IMG/VR virus record: IMGVR_UViG_2563366923_000008
Span: 1 to 45,506 of that record
Source of the DNA: a virus
Taxonomy: Duplodnaviria; Heunggongvirae; Uroviricota; Caudoviricetes
Strand: one strand, 5' to 3'
Length of the DNA stretch: 45,506 nt
Shown here piece after piece: positions 16,648 to 45,506 of this stretch (the first letter of the stretch is position 1; every line of letters begins with the position of its first letter). The position numbers and the translations under genes are program-made. A model generated the notes under the pieces. It was not told the DNA's origin. It worked only from the letters and a program-made list of their open reading frames with translations, and did no database searches.

Positions 16648-16784
16648 GCCGTGACGTTATCGAACGCATCCGCGACCGCTGGCAAAAGCTTCGCCTCCTG
16701 CGTAGCCGCGGCACCGTGCTGGTCGACTACAAAATATTACGCAATTTCGTCCGTATCTATAAGCGCCTGGGAGAAGCAGCATGA
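16644..16784 (+). CDS. Small protein (46 aa), YlcG-like position
   Basis: ATGA overlaps at both ends (rusA stop and Q start); [46 protein letters not shown]. Confidence 0.35.
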
Positions 16785-17470
16785 CAGCTCAATACTTGGA
16801 ATTTGTTCGCCAGCAGCTGATAGTGGCCACCGCCGATCTGAGTGGTGCGACGAAAGGGCAACTGGTAGCTTTTGCAGAGAACGCGCAATTTACCGCTACG
16901 GCGCGCAGCCGTGGCCGGAAGAAGGTGTATAGCGAGGTGAAGCAAAAAATGGTTAACCCGGATGGACCGCCGATGAGCGGCAGCCAGTCCCGCGCTAAGG
17001 GTTCCTCAATCGCTCTCGTTCTGCCCGTTGAATACTCGACAGCCAGCTGGCGCCGCGCCCTCCTGTCGCTGGAAGACCACCAGAAATCCTGGTTGCTGTG
17101 GAACTACAGCGACAATATCCGCTTTGAGTATCAGGTAGCGATAACACAGTGGGCATGGGAAGAATTCCGTGATCAACTCGGCGCTAAGAAAGTGGCCGGC
17201 AAGACGATGGAGCGGCTGAAGAAACTGATATGGCTGGCGGCACAGGACGTGAAAGCAGAGCTGGCGGGTAAGTATGTATATCAGCACCAGGACCTTGCAG
17301 CCCTGTGTGGCGTTAAGCCTGATAACTGGTGCCATAACTACGCTGATTACTGGCGGGCTATGTGCGCCATTTTTAAGCGGCTTGATAGCGACTCTCTTCT
17401 CTGTGCTGTGAGAACACGATCACAACAAAAAGCGACTTTTTCGCAGCAGGGTCTTGCAAAAGTCAATTAA
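16781..17470 (+). CDS. Putative late antiterminator Q
   Basis: 229 aa directly upstream of the PR'/tR' region and lysis cassette; call is mainly positional. Confidence 0.6.
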   Translation: MTAQYLEFVRQQLIVATADLSGATKGQLVAFAENAQFTATARSRGRKKVYSEVKQKMVNPDGPPMSGSQSRAKGSSIALVLPVEYSTASWRRALLSLEDHQKSWLLWNYSDNIRFEYQVAITQWAWEEFRDQLGAKKVAGKTMERLKKLIWLAAQDVKAELAGKYVYQHQDLAALCGVKPDNWCHNYADYWRAMCAIFKRLDSDSLLCAVRTRSQQKATFSQQGLAKVN

Positions 17471-19696: not shown

Positions 19697-19726
19697 CGGG
19701 GTTCTTTAACAATAAGAGAGGGAGTA

Positions 19727-20020
19727 ATGGAAAAAGAACAAAACGGCGCTGCAATCTTTCCTGTAGCAAAAGACTTTAAATTCTGTCTTGGGCAACTAGT
19801 GAACTTGCGCATTAGTGATGAGTTCGGCGAGGTACAGGCCCGCTCCCAGCATGTGACAGGTGAGAACCAGTACTTTATTTACTACCAGGCCGCCAATAAA
19901 TGTGCGACTGAGCGCTGGTATTCCGAATCGCAACTGGTAGCGGTGGAAGATGACCGTTCTCCGGGTATGCCTGTCTTTGGTTGTGTTGAGTTGCCGGAAG
20001 GTGCGGCGGTTGAAGAGTAA
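19727..20020 (+). CDS. Hypothetical protein
   Basis: 97 aa, good RBS. Confidence 0.5.
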   Translation: MEKEQNGAAIFPVAKDFKFCLGQLVNLRISDEFGEVQARSQHVTGENQYFIYYQAANKCATERWYSESQLVAVEDDRSPGMPVFGCVELPEGAAVEE

Positions 20021-20148
20021 GGCATTACAGCAGGCATTCACTGAGTGCCTGCGACAAAGCTAAATGGCATCAAGCATGCGATGATGATTGATTAATAATT
20101 GAGCTATGCATGGTATAATAAGCCACATTCATTGAAAGGTTAACCACC

Positions 20149-20313
20149 ATGTCATTTTTCGATTATGCAATGCAGCGTGTTGGGCTTGCAGCCAATACGA
20201 CTGTCATGTGCCCGATATGCGGACATAAATCCACACACTCGACCACGAAAGTACGCCAACAACAGGCGTTACTTTGCCCTAAATGTAAATCTCTGTTTGT
20301 CATTCACAGGTAG
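20149..20313 (+). CDS. Small zinc-ribbon protein (54 aa), stand-alone moron
   Basis: MSFFDYAMQRVGLAANTTVMCPICGHKSTHSTTKVRQQQALLCPKCKSLFVIHR; own extended -10 promoter (TGgTATAAT 20111-20119) and a perfect terminator. Confidence 0.5.
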   Translation: MSFFDYAMQRVGLAANTTVMCPICGHKSTHSTTKVRQQQALLCPKCKSLFVIHR

Positions 20314-20338
20314 TGGGTCGCGATACAAATAACCCCAG

Positions 20339-20362
20339 GCCTCGCAATTGCGAGGCTTTTTT
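20339..20362 (+). terminator. Rho-independent terminator of the zinc-ribbon moron
   Basis: GCCTCGCAATTGCGAGGC followed by TTTTTT. Confidence 0.6.
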
Positions 20363-20505
20363 ATACCAGCAGTAAACGCGCATCTCACGCGCATATTAAC
20401 GAGAGCCTTTCAGTAAGCGAGCCTGAGAAATGCCGTTATAGGTGGCGACCTCTCTCGGGCGGCTTTTCTGTGAGACAGGCTCACTTTCTAAAAGGTAAAG
20501 ACGCT

Positions 20506-21003
20506 ATGAAAGCAATCACGCTTTTTAATACACCGATCCGTGTTGATGAATCAGGAATGATCTGCCTCACTGATATGTGGAAAGCCAGTGGTAAAAGTGA
20601 ATCTGAATCTCCGTACCACTACCTGCGAAACAAGCAGACCAAAGAGTTCTTAGCCGAGCTGGAGAAAAACCACGAATCTGTGGTTTTTACTGAGCGCGGT
20701 GTACACGGTGGAACATATGGCGGGAAGTTTGTTGCTTACGATTATGCGGCTTGGTTAAACCCCGGGTTCAAGTACGCGGCCTATAAAGTCCTCGATGACT
20801 ACTTCACTGGAGAACTTCAGCATCGCAACAGCTTAAGTGCGCAGCTCAACATGAAATGTCATGAGTTTGACCAGAAGAAAGACATGGCGAGCTTCTGCGG
20901 ACAAGGGCTGGCGGCATGGCGCTATACGAAGCCAGTGTTGGTCGCTGAGATTAACTCCCTGGCTAACCAGCTGCAGATTACGATCCCCGGGCTTCCGGGA
21001 TGA
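20506..21003 (+). CDS. KilA-N domain protein (antirepressor-like)
   Basis: MKAITLFNTPIRVDESGMICLTDMWKASGKSESESPYHYLRNKQTKEFLAELEK fits the KilA-N pattern; track start 20470 is GTG, ATG at 20506 has a better RBS. Confidence 0.7.
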   Translation: MKAITLFNTPIRVDESGMICLTDMWKASGKSESESPYHYLRNKQTKEFLAELEKNHESVVFTERGVHGGTYGGKFVAYDYAAWLNPGFKYAAYKVLDDYFTGELQHRNSLSAQLNMKCHEFDQKKDMASFCGQGLAAWRYTKPVLVAEINSLANQLQITIPGLPG

Positions 21004-21257
21004 GTGATCGTGTCATTGAATGCGCCTCCAGAGCGGGGCGCGACTTCTCAGAGTTCATGAAAGGCGAGAAGGGCATGATGGAAGCATTGGCCTCGGTGGA
21101 TGAGTTTGGCGAGCAGCTGCGCCTCAACGGCTGTGTCAATCATCACTTTGTTAGCTACATGATGCGGAACTCGATCATGCAGGCATTCATGGACATGGCA
21201 AAAGCCGAGAGGAAAGAAGAGCGCCGGCGTAAGCGAGCGGAAGCAAAAGCGAAGTAG
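21000..21257 (+). CDS. Hypothetical protein translationally coupled to the KilA-N gene
   Basis: ATGA overlap; 85 aa with basic Lys/Arg/Glu-rich C-terminus. Confidence 0.5.
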   Translation: MSDRVIECASRAGRDFSEFMKGEKGMMEALASVDEFGEQLRLNGCVNHHFVSYMMRNSIMQAFMDMAKAERKEERRRKRAEAKAK

Positions 21258-21391
21258 CCATTACAAAGCTCATCTGCGGGTGGGCTTGATAATGGGGATG
21301 AATATCGCAATTTTTATTGTGGTTGACATAATTAGCTGATTTGCAATGATTATTTTGCTGTTGGTATAATTAATCCTCTACTACGAGAGGG

Positions 21392-21676
21392 ATGACTATG
21401 CTGACAATAATTTTGTTTGGTGCTGGCTGGAAAGGTGATGTTTGGGCTCTCGAGAGCTACAGTCCCGTTATTAAGGCTCCTGATCGGACATTTAGGCTTC
21501 TGAAAAGCTCTGGGGGTGCCCCGATCTTCGAGGATGCTGAGTTTGATGTTTTCGAATATCAGCTTGGTGATGAAATTTATCTGGTTGGCTGTCATGGGAA
21601 TAAGCCTAGTGACGATGTGATTATGTCACACATCCAGCATGGTGACCCTAAGCCGAAACCATACAAAACACTGTAA
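21392..21676 (+). CDS. Hypothetical protein (94 aa), stand-alone moron
   Basis: Own promoter TTGCAA-18 nt-TGgTATAAT (21341-21370), SD, and terminator. Confidence 0.55.
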   Translation: MTMLTIILFGAGWKGDVWALESYSPVIKAPDRTFRLLKSSGGAPIFEDAEFDVFEYQLGDEIYLVGCHGNKPSDDVIMSHIQHGDPKPKPYKTL

Positions 21677-21696
21677 CCGCCTCCGGGCGGTTTTTT
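21676..21696 (+). terminator. Rho-independent terminator of the 94-aa moron
   Basis: CCGCC-tccg-GGCGG followed by TTTTTT. Confidence 0.55.
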
Positions 21697-21786
21697 ATTG
21701 CCATCACCGAACAGGCATTACAGCAGGCATTCCCTGAGTGTCTGCGATAATGCTTTATTATCATTGTTAACGACGGGGTAAAAATC

Positions 21787-21984
21787 ATGAAAATTTTAGT
21801 TGAACACAACTCCAAAGTTATCTGGATGCGTGATAATGAAACATCTGAAGGTGTGGCCTGCAGGAGTTATATTAAGGACGGCGTACAGCAAAAGATTATT
21901 GCCGCCCTTGAGGATGCCTTAGCTCAGGCAAAGGGTGAGTTATTATGCTGGAATGACTCTGATGCTGTGAGTGACATTTCCTGA
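21787..21984 (+). CDS. Hypothetical small protein
   Basis: 65 aa ORF with plausible RBS. Confidence 0.4.
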   Translation: MKILVEHNSKVIWMRDNETSEGVACRSYIKDGVQQKIIAALEDALAQAKGELLCWNDSDAVSDIS

Positions 21985-22023
21985 GCCACCACCTAAATCA
22001 ATCGTAACGTTCCAGTATCCCAT

Positions 22024-22278
22024 ATGAGGCGCAACCAACCGGGTCGGAAGTCTCTCGAAGAAACCACCACCACCATGATGATGAAAACCCCGGTTATTTT
22101 TATAACTATTGAAGTTACTGTCGGTAGTGAGAAGGATGTTGCACTGGTGCGAGCAGTCAACAACAACGACATCACCTGCATTCAGGTGCATTCGTTTGTG
22201 AAGAAATTGCATAAGTCTCCTTATCAAGAGGCAATCAGCACTCCTCTCAAGGCTGGTACGCCAACGTCCCACCGCTGA
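22024..22278 (+). CDS. Hypothetical small protein
   Basis: 84 aa ORF; start uncertain. Confidence 0.3.
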   Translation: MRRNQPGRKSLEETTTTMMMKTPVIFITIEVTVGSEKDVALVRAVNNNDITCIQVHSFVKKLHKSPYQEAISTPLKAGTPTSHR

Positions 22279-22380
22279 CGGGCTGAGCCATTACCTTACC
22301 CAGACTCAACGATAAGTAACATCCTGATATTCAGACAGTAACTGTAATCGATAATGCTGAAGAATAGGCAGTAAATACAG

Positions 22381-23028
22381 GTGACTGATATGGCAACACT
22401 GAAGGATTTATCAAACCAGTTAAAGCAACTGCAAAAGCAAATCCCGTTTGCCACAGCTCAGGCGATGACAAAAGTTGTACGCCAGATTGAGTTGGCTCAG
22501 AAGACGGCATTCGAACGACATCTGGAGAGCCCCACGCCGTTTACCGTTAAATCAGTTGGTTCGGTGGCGGCAAGAAAGAACAATCTGACCGCAAAGGTTT
22601 TTGTCCGCGATACCGCTGCTGGTTATCTGGAACCATTCGAGTTTGGCGGAGAGCACAAGCTCAATAGCCAGGCTCTATTAAATCCCAAGAACGTTAAGCT
22701 AAACAAATACGGCAACATGCCGCGTAATAAGCTCTCACAGCTTAAAACAAAGGAAAATGTATTCGTAGGTGAGGTTGATGGCGTTAACGCTGTCTGGCAG
22801 CGTAAGAAGCCGATGAAAGCTAAGAAGCGACGGGCCAAACGTTCCGCTAACGGGACGCGAAGACCGAAACGCAAACAGCGTTCTCCAAAGCTTTTGATCC
22901 GGTTTGGTGATGCGCTACCTGTGACTCCAGTGCTGGGGTATATGGATAGGTCCCATACCATGGCGAACGCACTGCTACCGTCTGCTTTAAATCAGGCGAT
23001 AGCAGAAGCCATCAGGACGGCAAAATAA
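22381..23028 (+). CDS. Hypothetical protein with very basic C-terminal region
   Basis: 215 aa; KKPMKAKKRRAKRSANGTRRPKRKQRSPK tract suggests nucleic-acid binding. Confidence 0.5.
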   Translation: MTDMATLKDLSNQLKQLQKQIPFATAQAMTKVVRQIELAQKTAFERHLESPTPFTVKSVGSVAARKNNLTAKVFVRDTAAGYLEPFEFGGEHKLNSQALLNPKNVKLNKYGNMPRNKLSQLKTKENVFVGEVDGVNAVWQRKKPMKAKKRRAKRSANGTRRPKRKQRSPKLLIRFGDALPVTPVLGYMDRSHTMANALLPSALNQAIAEAIRTAK

Positions 23029-23038
23029 AAGCAGTAAC

Positions 23039-23542
23039 TTATAAGTTAATTTCGCAAGCTTTTATGAAGCTGTTTACTGCAGTTGTCGATCCAGAAACAT
23101 TGGCTGACATGGAATGCTGGTTTCCGCCATCCTTTGTTTGCACACCAACTAACACTTTGGATTTCGCCCCCTGAAGCTGCTTAAGCACTGTTTTTAGTTG
23201 GTCCGCGTCATCCGATTGAATCTGGAGGCTCTGAACATTACGTCTTGAAAGGGTAGCATCGAGCTTCACTGCGGTATTCCCGTCGACCTTCATTATCAGG
23301 TCCATTGGTACCTCTGATAGTGATTCGGTGCTTTTATCCATTTCAACGTATGCCGCCGATAGCTTTTCTTTAGTGCAGTCAAACACAATGGCGCCATTGT
23401 CGGATGAAACCTCGCCAAGCATCATTGCTTTCTTACCACCAGAGAAAAGGTCATCTTCAGTATTAGTTACCCACTGGGCATGAGCAATTGGTGATGCCAG
23501 CACTGCGGCTACGAAAGTTATTTTGATTATATTGTTACCCAT
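23039..23542 (-). CDS. Secreted or periplasmic protein of unknown function (opposite-strand moron)
   Basis: ATG at 23542 with AAGGAG SD at 6-nt spacing; signal peptide MGNNIIKITFVAAVLASPIAHA|QW; AT-rich; only minus-strand gene in the late region before the fibre switch. Confidence 0.6.
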   Translation of the reverse strand: MGNNIIKITFVAAVLASPIAHAQWVTNTEDDLFSGGKKAMMLGEVSSDNGAIVFDCTKEKLSAAYVEMDKSTESLSEVPMDLIMKVDGNTAVKLDATLSRRNVQSLQIQSDDADQLKTVLKQLQGAKSKVLVGVQTKDGGNQHSMSANVSGSTTAVNSFIKACEINL

Positions 23543-23685
23543 TACATTCTCCTTGTATTGAATAGGAATAATCATAGTCGGAGCGAATGGTCGAAGCCAT
23601 AAAAAAATGGGTCCTTCCTGAGACTTTTGTAAGGTACGGGCATTGCGCGCCGCGGTGTTTTCCTAGCTACAACTTTCAGATTTGT

Positions 23686-23832
23686 GTCCCATGTCCCACC
23701 TCTGGCGATCATTACGGACACCTCGCCAGCTCTGGCTATTCCAGTTTATTCCAGTGGGACATTCTGGTGGGACATGGCAAAAATGTCCCAGACGAATGTC
23801 CCACCCCAGAAAATGTCCCAGGTGATGTCCCA
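23686..23832. repeat. Array of ATGTCCCA / TGGGACAT repeats immediately upstream of and overlapping the terS start (candidate terminase-binding or cos/pac-associated sites)
   Basis: GTCCCA at 23686 and 23693; TGGGACAT at 23755 and 23768; ATGTCCCA at 23783, 23796, 23813 and 23825, the last overlapping the terS ATG. Confidence 0.6.
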
Positions 23833-24401
23833 TGACCACGATGAACCAGAGTCAGTACGCACAACATTCAGGTGTGGATCGCAAAACAATTGGCCGGTGG
23901 ATTAAAGCCGGGCGCTTCATTGTGATGGACGGAGACCTGATTGACGTAGAGGCCAGCGATGCGGCATTGAAGAAAAACCGCGATGGCAAAGACCCGCGTG
24001 CCTCGAACGCGAAGAAAAAGAAAACTCCCGTCGTTAGCGATAACGATGATGACGGTGATGAAATCAATAAAACTGTCCGCCAGATAATGCTCACTGAAGG
24101 GGCAGATCTTTCGAGAGAGGAAGCGGGACGTATCCGCGAGAATTACATGGCCCTACAGGCAAAGCTGCAGTATGAAAAAGACAGCGGCCAGCTTATTGAG
24201 CTGACAGCAGCCGAGGAGGTTTTATTCAACGCCTTTCGCCAACAGCGTGATGCCTGGCTTAACTGGCCGTCCAGGGTGGCGCCGCTAATGGCTGCTGATC
24301 TGGATGTACCGGCGGACAGGATGACAGAGGTGCTGATTGAACATGTCCACAAACACATCTCAGTCCTCGGAGAGCCAGAGTTTAACCCGGCAGAAGATTG
24401 A
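23832..24401 (+). CDS. Terminase small subunit (N-terminal HTH)
   Basis: 189 aa; N-terminal QYAQHSGVDRKTIGRWIKAG HTH; acidic linker; directly upstream of the large terminase. Confidence 0.7.
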   Translation: MTTMNQSQYAQHSGVDRKTIGRWIKAGRFIVMDGDLIDVEASDAALKKNRDGKDPRASNAKKKKTPVVSDNDDDGDEINKTVRQIMLTEGADLSREEAGRIRENYMALQAKLQYEKDSGQLIELTAAEEVLFNAFRQQRDAWLNWPSRVAPLMAADLDVPADRMTEVLIEHVHKHISVLGEPEFNPAED

Positions 24402-26466
24402 GCGTCTTGAATTAAGCGTCCGCAAAGGCTGGACACCCCCGCCGCGTATCAGTGTGCCGCAGTGGGCAGATGACTATCGTAAGCTGGCAAAAGAGGCTGG
24501 GAGCACTTCGGGAAACTGGGAAACATCGACGGTAGAAATTGCCCGCGGACCGATGCTTGCCGCGACGGAGTCCGGGGTTCATATCATCACTGTAATGTGC
24601 TGTACCCAGTTGATGAAGACAGCACTGCTGGAAAACCTTTTTGGCTATTTTGCCCACCTCGATCCTTGTCCGATACTGCTGCTGCAGCCGAAAGAAGAAG
24701 CCGCTGAACAGTTTTCGAAAGAGCGTATTAGCCCGCTGGTAAGGGTGACGCCGGTACTGCGTAAAATCATCGGTGATTCGAAACAGAAAAGCTCGAAAGA
24801 AACCATTCTTTACAAGGCATTCACTGGCGGATTTCTGGCGCTGGCGGGTGCTGGTAGCCCTGATAACCTTGCGCGTCGTCCGATTCGTGTCCTGCTGGCG
24901 GATGAAGTGGACAAGTACCCGATAACCCGCGAAGGCGATCCAATTGCGCTGGCCGAAGAGCGTACAGCGACATTTGGCCTGACCTGGCTGTCTGTACGCG
25001 CCTGTTCGCCGACGGTGGAGGATGAGAGCCGCATTGCTGACAGCTACGCCGACTCCGATCAGCGCCGGGCATCTGTGGTTTGCCCGCACTGTGGCCACCG
25101 CCAGTTCCCCGACTTTTTCAAACACGTTCAGTGGCCGAAAGAGGGAGATAAACACCTGACTAAATCGGCGATGCTCTATTGCGAATGCTGTGGTAGTGGC
25201 TGGTCCGAAGGACAGCGCCTCAGAGCTCTGCACACTATTCGATGGCATCAGACGCGCCCATTTGAGTGCTGCGGGGAGCGGCACTCACCGCTGATGGATT
25301 ATGACCTTGCCTGGCGGGCGGCAGACGAGGGCAGCGTTGAAAAGGTCTGGCAATGGTCAGAGTCGGAACGGCATGCGGTCTATCGCGCAATCTGCCCCTC
25401 CTGTGGAAAGGAGGCAGTCGATAACCACCACGCGGGGTACCAGGCATCCAAGCTTTTCAGCCCCTGGCAAAAAGATAAGCCGTCGGATATTGCGAAAAAA
25501 TATATCGATGCGAAGGGCGATCCGGATAAGGAACAGGCGTGGTGGAATACCCAGATGGGGCTTCCGCACCGACCTAATCATGGGAAACAGCTCCCTGTTG
25601 ATGTTCTGCTGGCGCGCCGGGAAATATTTCCGGCCGTCGTTCCGGACGGGGTGGCATTGTTAACAGCTGGAGTTGATACCCAGGACGATCGCTTCGAAAT
25701 TACGATCACCGGCTGGGGGAGAGATGAAGAATCGTGGTCGGTCGCGCATGACGTTATTTATGGTGACCTTGAGACGGAAGAACCCTGGAAGCGACTGGAT
25801 GCATACCTGAAACAGATCTGGCGACGTGGTGACGGGCGCGGCCTGAATATCATGGCAACGTGCATGGACTCCGGCGGCCACCATACGCAGAAGGTATACG
25901 AATTCGCCAAAGAGCGTCTTGGCCGTCGTGTCTGGGCAATTAAGGGGGAGTCTGCACAGGGAGGCAAACGCAATCCTGTCTGGCCGACCAAACGACCATC
26001 ATCGAAAAGCAAAGCCAGTTTCCGCCCTGTCATTCTGGGGGTTAACTCAGCGAAAGACGTGATACGCGGTCGCCTGCATCTTGAGCCACCCAAACCTGGC
26101 GCCGCCGCTGCGGGTTATATGCATTTTCCTGACGATCGCGATCTCGGGTACTTCAATCAGCTGCTGGCGGAGCGACTGGTTTACAAAGTCATTTCCGGGC
26201 AGCGGTACAGTATCTGGGAAGCAATACCAGGACGAGCTAACGAAGCGCTTGACTGCCTCGTTTACAGCTATGCCGCGCTGTGCGGTCTCAAACATATGGG
26301 GTTAAAACTCAACGTCCGGGCCGCCAACCTCGAAGCCGATCCGGATAAGTTCCTGCCAGCGCCAGTTGGACAGGAAGAAAAAATCAATTACGAGCTGCCG
26401 GGTGCGGTTATTGAAGAACCAGCGCCGGTCAAACGTAAGCGAATATCGCAACTCCTGCCGAAATAA
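24343..26466 (+). CDS. Terminase large subunit (lambda gpA family)
   Basis: About 700 aa with ATPase region (VLLADEVDKYP) and C-terminal nuclease; track start 24337 is TTG, ATG at 24343; overlaps terS. Confidence 0.85.
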   Translation: MSTNTSQSSESQSLTRQKIERLELSVRKGWTPPPRISVPQWADDYRKLAKEAGSTSGNWETSTVEIARGPMLAATESGVHIITVMCCTQLMKTALLENLFGYFAHLDPCPILLLQPKEEAAEQFSKERISPLVRVTPVLRKIIGDSKQKSSKETILYKAFTGGFLALAGAGSPDNLARRPIRVLLADEVDKYPITREGDPIALAEERTATFGLTWLSVRACSPTVEDESRIADSYADSDQRRASVVCPHCGHRQFPDFFKHVQWPKEGDKHLTKSAMLYCECCGSGWSEGQRLRALHTIRWHQTRPFECCGERHSPLMDYDLAWRAADEGSVEKVWQWSESERHAVYRAICPSCGKEAVDNHHAGYQASKLFSPWQKDKPSDIAKKYIDAKGDPDKEQAWWNTQMGLPHRPNHGKQLPVDVLLARREIFPAVVPDGVALLTAGVDTQDDRFEITITGWGRDEESWSVAHDVIYGDLETEEPWKRLDAYLKQIWRRGDGRGLNIMATCMDSGGHHTQKVYEFAKERLGRRVWAIKGESAQGGKRNPVWPTKRPSSKSKASFRPVILGVNSAKDVIRGRLHLEPPKPGAAAAGYMHFPDDRDLGYFNQLLAERLVYKVISGQRYSIWEAIPGRANEALDCLVYSYAALCGLKHMGLKLNVRAANLEADPDKFLPAPVGQEEKINYELPGAVIEEPAPVKRKRISQLLPK

Positions 26467-42723: not shown

Positions 42724-43398
42724 ATGCTCCGAATCGGGCAAGTCGAAGCCACTGCAACGCAGGATGGCAAATATACTGATGGAAGTGTTGCTGGTGGTAT
42801 TGCCGCAACGAGGCTGCGGGCAGCAGCGTTTAATGCCATGCAGGAAGAGTTAGCGCATATCGTAGAGTCAGCAGGATTGGCGCTCGACATTAACGATATG
42901 ACTCAGGTTTTAAAAGCCATTCAAAAACTCACACTGAGCCGTGCAAACCCATTTGCCGATATCAAATCAGATGGTGCAGCGGCGATTTCTACGGCTCTCA
43001 CAAACCTTGGTTTGGGAGAAGCGGCAACGAGGAACGTCGGAACGGGTACCGGCCAAGTACCAGATATGAGCAGTTTTACAACGGGGCACTCTGGAGCAGC
43101 AGACTGGCCGATTCCTAAATCTGGATGGAGTAAGGGGCCGGATGGGGTAATTACACAATGGGGTACTTTCGGTTTCCCCGTTGGACAGACAGGGACGAAT
43201 GTTGTTTTCCCGCTACCTTTCCCCGCGCGGGTCGAATCAATTACACTGACAATGGCAGATATCCAGGAGTCTCTGCTTTCTCCAGCAACCATGCCTGCTT
43301 ATGGAGTTAACTCAACTGGTACTTCAAGAACGGGTTTTACAGCCCGTATGTCAGGCGCCGGTGGGTTTAATCTTTGCTATATAGCGAAAGGGAGATAA
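42724..43398 (+). CDS. Tail fibre protein (constant N-terminus plus variable C-terminus, currently expressed orientation)
   Basis: N-terminal MLRIGQVEATATQDGKYTDGSVAGGIAATRLRAAAFNAMQEE typical of fibre N-termini; inversion crossover site inside the gene at about codon 95. Confidence 0.7.
   Translation: MLRIGQVEATATQDGKYTDGSVAGGIAATRLRAAAFNAMQEELAHIVESAGLALDINDMTQVLKAIQKLTLSRANPFADIKSDGAAAISTALTNLGLGEAATRNVGTGTGQVPDMSSFTTGHSGAADWPIPKSGWSKGPDGVITQWGTFGFPVGQTGTNVVFPLPFPARVESITLTMADIQESLLSPATMPAYGVNSTGTSRTGFTARMSGAGGFNLCYIAKGR
42995..43020. promoter_or_regulatory. Left gix/hix-like inversion crossover site
   Basis: CTCTCACAAACC-TT-GGTTTGGGAGAA; shares the half-site GGTTTGGGAGAA with the inverted copy at 44873-44898. 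Confidence 0.6.
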
Positions 43399-43402
43399 CA
43401 GA

Positions 43403-43846
43403 ATGAATAAAGTTAAAAGTGTTTACAGCCCGTCCGAAAATGCAATCTACAACGCAGCGCTATATGAAAGTTATATCAAGGAGGGGACATGGCCGCAGGA
43501 TGGTATTGAAATCAGCGATGAGGATGCTGTCAGATTTAATGGGGGAAATAAGCCAACAGGAAAAATGCTGGGAATGGTTTCAGGGACCCTTGCATGGGTT
43601 GATGAGCCGCCGCTTTCACCAGAACAGAAAATATCAGATGCAGAAAACATGAAAGCCACATTTCGTGCAAAAGCTGACAGTGAAATATCCTGGCGTCAGG
43701 ATGCTGTTGATGCTGGTATCGCAACTGATGAAGAAACTTCAACTCTCACCCAATGGAAGAAATACCGTGTGCTGCTGATGCGTGTTGATACGTCAACAGC
43801 ACCCGATATTGAATGGCCTACGCCTCCGGCAGCTCAGGCCAGATGA
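43403..43846 (+). CDS. Tail fibre assembly protein (Tfa)
   Basis: 147 aa; C-terminal ...TSTAPDIEWPTPP motif shared with the opposite-strand Tfa'. Confidence 0.7.
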   Translation: MNKVKSVYSPSENAIYNAALYESYIKEGTWPQDGIEISDEDAVRFNGGNKPTGKMLGMVSGTLAWVDEPPLSPEQKISDAENMKATFRAKADSEISWRQDAVDAGIATDEETSTLTQWKKYRVLLMRVDTSTAPDIEWPTPPAAQAR

Positions 43847-44420
43847 CATCAGGCGCGGTGCTGGTATCTGTTGCCGTCACCGCGTCAATGTAATCCAGCA
43901 CGACGTTAAGTCGGGTTGTTTCTGCCTGCGTCAGTTTCCGCCCGGCCTGTAATTTCAGCTGAATCAGACTAATGGAAGCCATTGCTGCATCAATCAGTGA
44001 CTGGCGCTGTGCTTCTGCCGCGTCTACTGCGGCACTGTGTTGTGCCTCAGTGTCTGTCACCCATTTCTCACCATCCCATTTATCGTATGGCGTTAACGGG
44101 GCGATAGTGGTTGTATTTTCGGGGTAATCACCCAGAGCTGTGATTTCTTTGGCGTCTCCCGTTTCGGTGTTATAGACGATTTCACCGCGATGGTCTGGCA
44201 CATATTCCCATGAGTTTAAATCTGCCGAACGGCAGATTGCATAACCAGCCTTATGTATACCAGGTTCATCCAGACAGGAATATGCCGGGATACCAACACC
44301 AACGGCAAGATATTCATTTGAAGTGGAAATATATTCCCGAGTTTCACCATCATAGCTATAGACGGTAATATCCCCCGCCTTCGTGGCAATAAGCTCGCTA
44401 TTTAATACAGCGTTATCCAT
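43818..44420 (-). CDS. Alternative tail fibre assembly protein (Tfa'), inverted orientation
   Basis: 200 aa; C-terminal ...TSTAPDVIWPELPEA; convergent with and overlapping Tfa. Confidence 0.65.
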   Translation of the reverse strand: MDNAVLNSELIATKAGDITVYSYDGETREYISTSNEYLAVGVGIPAYSCLDEPGIHKAGYAICRSADLNSWEYVPDHRGEIVYNTETGDAKEITALGDYPENTTTIAPLTPYDKWDGEKWVTDTEAQHSAAVDAAEAQRQSLIDAAMASISLIQLKLQAGRKLTQAETTRLNVVLDYIDAVTATDTSTAPDVIWPELPEA

Positions 44421-44905
44421 TATGCAGCCCTCACGATAAAGTTAAATGCAATATTTCGCGCACGTGTTTCCGTTGATGTTCTGGCAACAAGTGATGCATC
44501 AAAATAATAATTCGCCTGTTTATATGTACCACCTGTCGCAATTGATGCGAGATTTGGTGTCAATGTTGAAGAGGTAAATGCGCCGAAAGTATTATTATTT
44601 GTCCCCGTGGTCATATCAAAAAAGCTACCTGTAATATTTTGCAGCGTATCGCTCTGAGCACTCAATAACGCTCGCCCACTGTCCACTCCACGCCCATCAT
44701 CCCAGCCACGAATAAACTCACCACGTAAATCAGGCAATTTATTTGTCGGGTAAGCCTTTGCCAGCTCCGGGTATTCTTCAGCAGAAAAAGCTGCACCATT
44801 GCATTTCAACCAGCCTGTCGGTGGTGTAGCTGAAGGCCACGGAACAGGCACACCAACCGGTAATGCAGAGCCTTCTCCCAAACCAACCTTTTTTATAACC
44901 ATCAA
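44420..44905 (-). CDS. Alternative variable tail-fibre C-terminal segment (Sv'), currently silent orientation
   Basis: 161 aa; ORF runs leftward through the right crossover site (...VGLGEGSA... matches fibre ...LGLGEAA...); would fuse to the constant fibre N-terminus after inversion. Confidence 0.6.
   Translation of the reverse strand: MMVIKKVGLGEGSALPVGVPVPWPSATPPTGWLKCNGAAFSAEEYPELAKAYPTNKLPDLRGEFIRGWDDGRGVDSGRALLSAQSDTLQNITGSFFDMTTGTNNNTFGAFTSSTLTPNLASIATGGTYKQANYYFDASLVARTSTETRARNIAFNFIVRAA
44873..44898. promoter_or_regulatory. Right gix/hix-like inversion crossover site
   Basis: Reverse complement reads TTATAAAAAAGG-TT-GGTTTGGGAGAA, comparable to Mu gix (TTATCCAAAACC-TC-GGTTTACAGGAA). 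Confidence 0.6.
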
Positions 44906-44957
44906 AAATCTGGTGATGCTTCGCCGTTTCTCCTGTTTTCATAACAGGAGAAATCCC

Positions 44958-45506
44958 ATGATTTACGGTTATGCCCGAGTATCAACAAACCACCAGGACA
45001 CTGAATTGCAACTAACGGCGCTCAAGTCAGCGGGTTGTGAGAAAATTTTTGAAGAGCATGCCAGCGGGAGGAAATCGAATCGGCCGGTTCTAAAACGGCT
45101 CATCGCCACTATGCAGCCGGGGGATGAACTGGTGGTCTGGAAGCTGGACAGGATAGGCCGCAACGTTCTGCATGCGCTGTTGATGTTCCAGCAGTTACAG
45201 GAAAAGGGTATCAACTTCCGCAGTATTACCGATGGCGTGGATCTCAAAACAGCCAGCGGCCGCTATAACTTTCGTAACATCCTTTCCGCAGCACAATATG
45301 AATCTGATCTTAATAGCGAACGTACCTTAGCAGGGCTGGCCGTAGCCAGGGCAAAAGGGCGAGTTGGTGGTCGCAGGCCTAAGTTCACGGATGAGCAATG
45401 GCGGGAAATGGGGGAGCGGATGGCAACCGGTGAATCACGACAAAGCGTATCAAAAACGTATGGAGTAGGGCTCTCAACTCTGTATAAAAAGTTTCCAGCT
45501 AGCTGA
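44958..45506 (+). CDS. Serine DNA invertase (Hin/Gin/Cin/Pin family)
   Basis: MIYGYARVSTNHQDTELQ... catalytic Ser motif; C-terminal HTH; AGGAG SD; adjacent to the invertible fibre segment. Confidence 0.9.
   Translation: MIYGYARVSTNHQDTELQLTALKSAGCEKIFEEHASGRKSNRPVLKRLIATMQPGDELVVWKLDRIGRNVLHALLMFQQLQEKGINFRSITDGVDLKTASGRYNFRNILSAAQYESDLNSERTLAGLAVARAKGRVGGRRPKFTDEQWREMGERMATGESRQSVSKTYGVGLSTLYKKFPAS

Follow-up and report, generated by a model that had tools for sequence, protein, structure and literature searches.

An antisense gene at the cos site of a temperate phage encodes a conserved protein of predicted export that may be accessory cargo of the lysogen

Introduction

What is the task of a gene that is lodged between the late operon and the packaging site of a phage genome and is read against the late genes? 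This question is raised by the minus-strand open reading frame at 23039..23542 of the Caudoviricetes record IMGVR_UViG_2563366923_000008 (IMG/VR), of which the 45,506 nt analysed here are referred to as the window. In the following, this reading frame is called the target gene and its 167-aa product the target protein. An earlier interpretation made from the letters of the DNA only (the sequence-only reading) had taken it for the gene of a secreted moron, i.e. accessory cargo. Our analysis reveals a genuine, strongly conserved gene of an uncharacterised family, which sits as an old insertion next to cos and which recurs in several unrelated phage settings. For its product acting as exported accessory cargo at the envelope of the lysogen, most likely protecting it, we see about an even chance.

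Results

A profile search assigned the target protein to PHROG 19473, residues 1-167 being aligned with positions 1-167 of the 167-position profile (E 1.6e-99). This is the family of the target protein, and since it is unannotated, membership names the protein without explaining it. Close homologues in Enterobacteriaceae form 33 protein clusters at 90% identity, and a profile search of 1.8 billion representatives returned 270 clusters at 50% identity, mostly of about 165 aa, with a few carrying two to four tandem copies. Across genera the protein is conserved over its full length (46-100% identity); the family alignments show no or almost no variation at W24, C56 and C163, and they retain the motifs EDDLF, KVD and RRN. 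Comparison of orthologue pairs gave a nonsynonymous divergence (pN) of 0.09-0.35 against a synonymous divergence (pS) of 0.55-0.93, the synonymous sites being near saturation, and the ratio of nonsynonymous to synonymous rates (dN/dS) did not exceed 0.2 wherever it was computable. Evidently, the target gene is under strong purifying selection.

The identical target sequence was found on at least 1000 contigs, labelled there only as 'hypothetical protein [Enterobacteriaceae]', and carriers of the gene include a bloodstream isolate of E. coli. Among 5426 complete E. coli genomes, 22 contain the form present in the window and 5 the form of Mu-like prophages described below. Neither a DNA search nor tblastn gave a match in the deposited phage genomes searched (50,697); only prophages and metagenomic viral contigs have supplied members of the family. 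No published study of the protein was found by accession or PHROG. Scans of the target protein against Pfam, NCBIfam and PADLOC matched no family, those of 85 and 35 divergent family members against Pfam gave no recurring one, and the family scans yielded no match to known virulence families. Matches at noise level to DUF7767 (E 0.03), SigF (E 0.015) and a type I specificity (S) subunit (E 0.007, 13 bits) were dismissed. Homology to a structural virion protein, which according to the sequence-only reading would have spoken against its own proposal, was looked for in PHROG, Pfam and NCBIfam, and none was found. In the high-GC distant members P0151, P0177 and P0180 two to four tandem domain copies make up one secreted protein of 470-655 aa. 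The retention of Trp and the Cys pair in each of these copies points to a binding domain of modular kind.

The reading frame of the target gene is open from 23575 (23039..23575, minus strand; stop codon 23039..23041), and the conserved start is the ATG at 23542. The coding sequence 23039..23542 agrees with the list of open reading frames, with PHROG 19473, with the alignments of homologues and with RefSeq. An alternative start at 23575, giving 178 aa, has no Shine-Dalgarno sequence, and its ATG is missing in the Salmonella relatives. In the RefSeq annotation of E. coli the protein has 167 aa. The strong Shine-Dalgarno sequence AAGGAG claimed beforehand was found at 23549..23554 (minus strand), 6 nt before the ATG, and is kept as AAGGAG or AAGGGG across the relatives. 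The gene had also been called AT-rich, which is borne out by a GC content of 44.6% (44.6% at third codon positions, GC3) compared with 51.2% for the window, 52.8% for the structural genes, 52.3% for the small (TerS) and 55.5% for the large terminase subunit (TerL). This contrast is modest, since the neighbouring cargo stretch (19700..23028) is likewise low in GC (47.5%).

The N-terminus of the target protein, MGNNIIKITFVAAVLASPIAHA followed by QW, combines one positive charge, a hydrophobic core and A-H-A at positions -3 to -1, so that the Sec signal peptide with cleavage after AHA, as already proposed by the sequence-only reading, is again predicted. Its coding part covers 23477..23542 (minus strand, residues 1-22) with a predicted signal peptidase I cut at A22/Q23. 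As read from the sequence, there is neither a lipobox Cys at +1 (the first Cys is residue 56) nor a twin-Arg motif. This AXA-type architecture recurs in an alignment of 85 divergent family members reaching down to 22% identity, for which rule-based counts (not SignalP) were made: Ala occupies -1 in 71/85 and -3 in 56/85 of the sequences, signal length and maximum 9-residue hydropathy have medians of 21 and 2.7, respectively, and 80/85 have a net charge of at least +1. Exactly two Cys are present in the mature part of 84/85 members. The mature target protein would comprise 145 aa (15.5 kDa, pI 4.9) with the invariant pair C56 and C163, and the signal peptide as well as the Cys pair is retained in every aligned example across all genomic settings. 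Probably, a disulfide between Cys56 and Cys163 stabilises the protein in the periplasm.

Structure prediction, which had been suggested as a check, was performed with AlphaFold2 on an alignment of 25 sequences (mean predicted local distance difference test, pLDDT, 85; predicted template-modelling score, pTM, 0.78). Residues 1-20 are disordered in the model (pLDDT < 50), as expected for a signal peptide, and the remainder forms a compact beta-rich domain of about ten strands with two helices (113-124 and 152-162). According to the model, the target protein appears to be IalB-like in fold without being a member of the IalB family, i.e. it would display a beta-rich fold that is used elsewhere for periplasmic proteins. 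Foldseek searches of BFVD retrieved only uncharacterised proteins of T4-like phages (template-modelling score, TM, about 0.5), and matches in the PDB to TEAD and to a fibre head (TM about 0.25) were dismissed. PDB sequence searches with three profiles found only a de novo designed protein and noise, missing 3dtd, the IalB entry.

The position of the target gene was analysed by comparison with the nearest deposited phages, Citrobacter phage phiNP and Serratia phage BZS1 (TerL 48% identical). The gene order of the region is Q antiterminator (16781..17470), endolysin, Rz-like spanin, a cargo stretch, a gene for a 215-aa protein, the antisense target gene, small terminase and large terminase. In phiNP the homologue of the 215-aa protein (phiNP_029, 75% amino acid identity) directly precedes cos and terS with no gene between. 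Pairwise comparison with this phage delimited a cassette of about 570 bp (23029..23597), comprising the target gene and 55 nt upstream of it, in place of which phiNP has 54 bp; homology resumes at 23598. The flanking gene (75% identity) and an identical cos are retained by both phiNP and BZS1, with 54 bp where the window has the cassette, so that the target gene is an insertion, as had been claimed. The claim that it lies just upstream of the packaging site holds as well: the 12-nt cosN cohesive end GCATTGCGCGCC has its one exact match in the window at 23640..23651 (plus strand), followed by repeats, and has the same sequence as the cosL (left cohesive end) annotated in Serratia phage vB_SspM_BZS1, whose overhang was determined with PhageTerm and confirmed by PCR and sequencing (PMC7556043). 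The same 12-mer is present in the relatives L006-L011 and in phiNP. The target gene, whose ATG is 98 nt from the cos cut, is the outermost gene of the right arm of the virion DNA and is read inward.

The arrangement of 215-aa gene, target gene, cos, TerS and TerL is kept in prophages of Enterobacter, Citrobacter, Salmonella, Klebsiella aerogenes and E. coli at 62-100% protein identity, and the layout of 215-aa gene, target gene and cos is found in about 48/58 IMG/VR loci (viral contigs). The insertion is thus old and stable, neither recent nor a one-off event. Comparison of 22381..26466 of the window with L006 gave DNA identities of 98.9% for TerL, 96% for TerS, 89-95% for the cos region, 75% for the target gene and 74% for the 215-aa gene. 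As the identity falls from 98.9% to about 74-75% across cos, the latter is a mosaic junction, which suggests recombination between phage lineages at or near cos. The target gene has diverged jointly with its 215-aa neighbour and not faster; hence, an arms race with the target evolving faster than its flank was rejected. In L007 (Enterobacter roggenkampii CP099308, 4318..6000) the target gene, cos and the 215-aa gene are kept, while terS, terL, gpW, portal and protease are lost and the head-decoration gene is joined directly to baseplate genes, so that this decayed prophage still carries the cargo gene.

Homologues of the target gene occupy at least five phage positions and, in addition, chromosomal ones. 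In Mu-like prophages of E. coli (63% identity) the homologue follows right after com-mom and precedes the Mu-type right end TTTTCGTGCGCCGC, and Mu-like prophages carrying it are inserted beside different host genes. In Dryocola and one viral contig (48-57% identity) it is located in a Mu-type tail module between the tape-measure gene and a gp43-like DNA-circulation gene. Further homologues (39-44% identity) lie just before the tape-measure gene or one gene before it, beside a Doc-like toxin or a membrane-protein moron. In one group of viral contigs (L062-L066 and L078; e.g. 3492..4700 of L063) a 67%-identical target stands between the Rz/endolysin cassette and a different terminase pair (PHROG 83 / PHROG 9), accompanied by the cos core 11-mer and by 100-150 nt left over from the 215-aa gene; here, either the terminase was exchanged or a cassette from beside cos was moved into a different packaging module. 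In some phages the homologue is co-oriented with the late genes. Outside phages, a stand-alone homologue lies beside a cobW/yjiA-type gene in the Leminorella chromosome (62% identity), and distant relatives (22-28% identity) are found among housekeeping genes of Alphaproteobacteria, for example in the order recA-X-alaS. The presence at several unrelated phage positions fits, together with the lower GC content, the proposal of the sequence-only reading that the gene is a moron.

Immediately convergent to the target gene is the gene of the 215-aa protein (22381..23028, plus strand), their stop codons being 10 nt apart. This protein belongs to PHROG 1924 ('minor tail protein'), is a homologue of phiBZS1_p72 and phiNP_029, contains a very basic stretch (KKPMKAKKRRAKRSANGTRRPKRKQRSPK) and has no match in Pfam or NCBIfam. 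Its gene lies directly upstream of cos/terS in many phages, far from other structural genes, and the BZS1 authors described the p72 homologue as always located just upstream of terS. The 215-aa protein may be structural or may have a packaging- or DNA-associated role. An obligate pairing of both genes was rejected, the target gene occurring without the 215-aa gene in the Mu-like, tail-module and chromosomal contexts. The assertion that the target gene is the sole minus-strand gene of the late region turned out to be wrong: a DUF1883 gene (21943..22212, minus strand; Pfam E 9e-26 with 90 bits, the cut-off being 26; 89 aa when read from the conserved Met) overlaps a plus-strand 84-aa reading frame without family match, and in relatives gene callers place it on the strand of the target. 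It is a second antisense cargo gene, present only in some relatives (L009-L011, L030, L031, L050, L051, L083); a minus-strand reading frame of L006 (9672..9998) is not the DUF1883 gene.

After the Rz-like spanin, 19727..21257 of the window contains genes for a KilA-N/ORF11CD3 protein (20470..21003) and a YnfU-like zinc-ribbon protein (20149..20313) as well as several small genes known only from PHROG. Because the E. coli relative L084 lacks most of these genes, this stretch is a variable cargo hot-spot. In the relatives the stretch from lysis genes to cos holds variable cargo including Ivy-like, TolA-like, Acb2/Tad1-hairpin, HicAB and DUF1883 genes.

Between the target gene and cosN, just inside the right end of the virion DNA, lies a conserved element, AAAAAAATGGGTCCTTCCT (23601..23619, plus strand), which is invariant in the window, in the Enterobacter, Citrobacter and Salmonella relatives and in phiNP and may be cosQ-like judging by its position. 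On the other side of cosN, eight (A/G)TGTCCCA repeats in both orientations (23684..23832) end at the start codon of TerS and are probably binding sites of the small terminase, i.e. putatively cosB-like. Seven exact copies of ATGTCCCA occur in the window, all at 23691..23832, a number reached in 0/100 shuffles. The left end of the virion DNA starts with the gene for TerS itself (23832..24401, plus strand; PHROG 57), which is divergent from the target gene. When 23684..23832 was compared with the loci L012, L023, L039, L060, L072, L074, L021 and L022, relatives with a TerS at least 88% identical to that of the window had eight TGTCCCA repeats between cosN and terS, and those with a TerS about 57-61% identical had 6-9 GGTAAC repeats instead; phiNP and BZS1 have 3 GGTAAC repeats there. 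The cosN 12-mer is unchanged or differs in its last base across both TerS types. This looks like two TerS specificity types on one cos, that is, a natural swap of cosB sites together with the DNA-binding domain of TerS.

At the far end of the window (43403..45506), a plus-strand fibre C-terminus and chaperone (42724..43846) face an alternative chaperone and fibre C-terminus on the minus strand (43818..44905). These opposed sets (42724..44905) are arranged as in the invertible segments of Mu and P1, and a reading frame at 44799..45506 runs off the end of the window.

Discussion

The comparisons show an insertion into a temperate phage with a lambda-type head and a Mu-type tail: the target gene came to lie between cos and the last late gene, is read against the late operon, has been kept at cos and has also moved between other phages. 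Taken as accessory cargo of the lysogen, the target protein would be expressed from the prophage, exported via Sec and cut by signal peptidase I after Ala22, and in the periplasm it would form a soluble, compact beta-rich domain of the IalB type with two helices, stabilised by a disulfide. It would take no part in the virion or the packaging machinery. Since neither an enzyme family nor a catalytic motif was recognised, binding appears more plausible than catalysis, and the strong purifying selection, the conservation across unrelated phage backbones and the distant chromosomal relatives point to a conserved host envelope component as the partner rather than to a fast-evolving phage part. The benefit would be protection of the lysogen at its envelope, presumably by blocking other phages at entry. 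Lysogenic conversion or superinfection exclusion, named in the sequence-only reading as typical of such cargo, would be plausible. Exclusion of other phages at entry is our best single guess for the function, a tentative one, which we place ahead of envelope fitness and, further behind, of a role linked to the tail.

Several observations weigh against such a role in the lysogen. Expression is its weakest link: consensus scans of four contexts (the window, L001, L019 and L024) gave neither a sigma-70 promoter nor an intrinsic terminator for the target gene. A candidate -10 element, TATGAT (23571..23576, minus strand), can be proposed with a weak -35-like ATGGCT (23595..23600) at a spacing of 18 nt, and a TAT(G/A/C/T)AT-like element is found at constant distance in the cos-proximal relatives and in the stand-alone copy of Leminorella. 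A hand-picked TTGCTT-N17-TATAAA 5' of the Mu-like copy of E. coli fails the scan rule and was not relied on. The co-orientation with late genes in several phages would equally fit a late lytic function. That the protein is exported via Sec, cut after A22 and soluble in the periplasm is a prediction from sequence rules; of the earlier claim that it is secreted, the AXA-type signal peptide has stood, and secretion itself remains predicted. None of the defence and exclusion families represented by the PADLOC-DB hidden Markov models matched the target protein. Foldseek found nothing significant for the model in the PDB, and the IalB Pfam model PF06776 had 0 matches in the target protein or in the 35 and 85 aligned family members; the sole match, among 10 longer or multidomain relatives scanned separately, was P0066 with 18.7 bits against a cut-off of 22.1 (E 0.002). 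As no match at the sequence level exceeds the cut-off, the link to IalB is structural only. IalB has a signal peptide, 2 helices and 11 strands, and its location and mechanism are unsettled (PMC6299047), so that the fold supplies no mechanism for the target protein either.

The most serious alternative, doubtful as it is in our estimate, is a factor for host fitness or virulence comparable to lambda Bor or Bartonella IalB, which would leave other phages unaffected but help the lysogen to survive in animal hosts or when its envelope is stressed (serum, lysozyme, stress by oxidants or pH, adhesion or invasion). The modelled IalB-type fold would suit such a factor, as would the strong purifying selection and the same genome slot and antisense orientation as those of lambda bor. 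Homologues among alphaproteobacterial housekeeping genes and alone in Leminorella suggest an ancestral role in the cellular envelope; other periplasmic cargo (Ivy-like, TolA-like) occurs in the same region of relatives, and a bloodstream isolate is among the carriers. However, the protein belongs by sequence to neither the IalB nor the Bor/Iss families, in E. coli it is rare, with 22 + 5 carriers among 5426 complete genomes, and there is no evidence of enrichment in pathogens. Moreover, the predicted protein is soluble and not anchored at the surface, having neither a lipobox nor a beta-barrel.

Unlikely, in our view, is a tail-linked helper of lysis or entry, whose synthesis would come late or right at the start after injection and whose site of action would be the periplasm. 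It could bind tape-measure or tail-tip proteins or the receptor (preventing re-adsorption to debris), tune lysis, or aid or limit the passage of DNA across the periplasm. Such a helper would account for the co-orientation with late genes in four independent arrangements, three of which adjoin the tape-measure gene directly or at a distance of one gene, for the position after the late gene mom in Mu-like prophages, and for the target being the gene nearest to the right cohesive end here, the right end of lambda being packaged last and injected first. Yet in the commonest arrangement the gene is read against the late operon at a distance of 12 kb from the tape-measure gene, phiNP and BZS1 lack the gene, chromosomal homologues exist outside phages, and morons often lodge in tail operons, so that the adjacency may mean nothing.

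A bolder version, which we regard as a long shot, combines exclusion with entry: the family would represent a novel class of proteins of the IalB-type fold that serve exclusion or entry control in the periplasm by acting on the passage of tape measure or tail tip, its gene being parked at the end injected first. In lambda and Mu the right genome end is packaged last and enters first. The first-in position would follow from the ATG lying 98 nt from the right cohesive end and reading inward, and from the homologue being the last gene before the right end in Mu-like prophages. The target would then enter before all other genes and might also be expressed before them, and the repeated adjacency to tape-measure genes would reflect a functional link.

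Finally, a chance reading frame or a functionless, decaying remnant, as might be supposed from the missing match to any family of known function and the empty consensus promoter scan, is next to impossible and already refuted by homologues, alignments, selection and fold: full-length conservation of 46-100% identity across genera, pN far under pS, the invariant Cys pair and motifs, a confident fold prediction and 270 clusters at 50% identity.

If the target protein does act in the periplasm of the lysogen as accessory cargo, a fairly widespread uncharacterised family would join the phage cargo that remodels the envelope, and the poorly understood IalB-type fold would gain a tractable model in E. 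coli or Enterobacter. The locus amounts to a natural experiment, offering related phages with and without the target gene, a cos end mapped by homology and several backbones. Of mild interest are the apparent occurrence of an IalB-type fold in phages, the recurrent position beside tape-measure genes and the location at the genome end that enters first by analogy with lambda and Mu.

Among known systems, lambda Bor, to which the moron concept of Hendrix and colleagues applies, is the closest precedent in position. Like the target gene, whose product is predicted to be exported, bor encodes a small exported protein between the lysis cassette and cos/Nu1, is read against the late operon, has a GC content under that of its surroundings and is absent from otherwise similar phages. 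Bor is expressed in lysogens and confers serum resistance. It differs in being an outer-membrane lipoprotein with a lipobox, whereas the target protein has an AXA signal peptidase I site and no lipobox Cys, and between both there is neither sequence similarity nor a Pfam match.

T4 Spackle (Sp), T5 Llp, Cor of phi80/N15 and HK97 gp15 are likewise small phage proteins with export signals, and their site of action is the envelope of a cell that is infected or lysogenic. Moreover, HK97 gp15 and the target family are both found as cargo in tail-gene regions. None of the four matches the target protein in sequence or fold; Spackle is much smaller, Llp and Cor are lipoproteins and gp15 is a membrane protein. 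SodCI of Gifsy-2 is, as predicted for the target protein, a soluble periplasmic protein with a Sec signal peptide, encoded by a temperate enterobacterial phage and of cellular-family origin. In contrast to SodCI, which is an enzyme of a recognisable family, the target protein matches no enzyme family and has no obvious catalytic motif.

IalB (PF06776; PDB 3dtd) shares with the target protein a signal peptide followed by a domain of about 145-165 aa and, judging from the model, a beta-rich fold with two helices; like the target family, it is common in Alphaproteobacteria. IalB is chromosomal, and its identity with the target protein is 13%. Compared with these systems, the exported-protein moron beside cos is a well-known kind of element, of which the target gene is an uncharacterised example that will not surprise a phage biologist.

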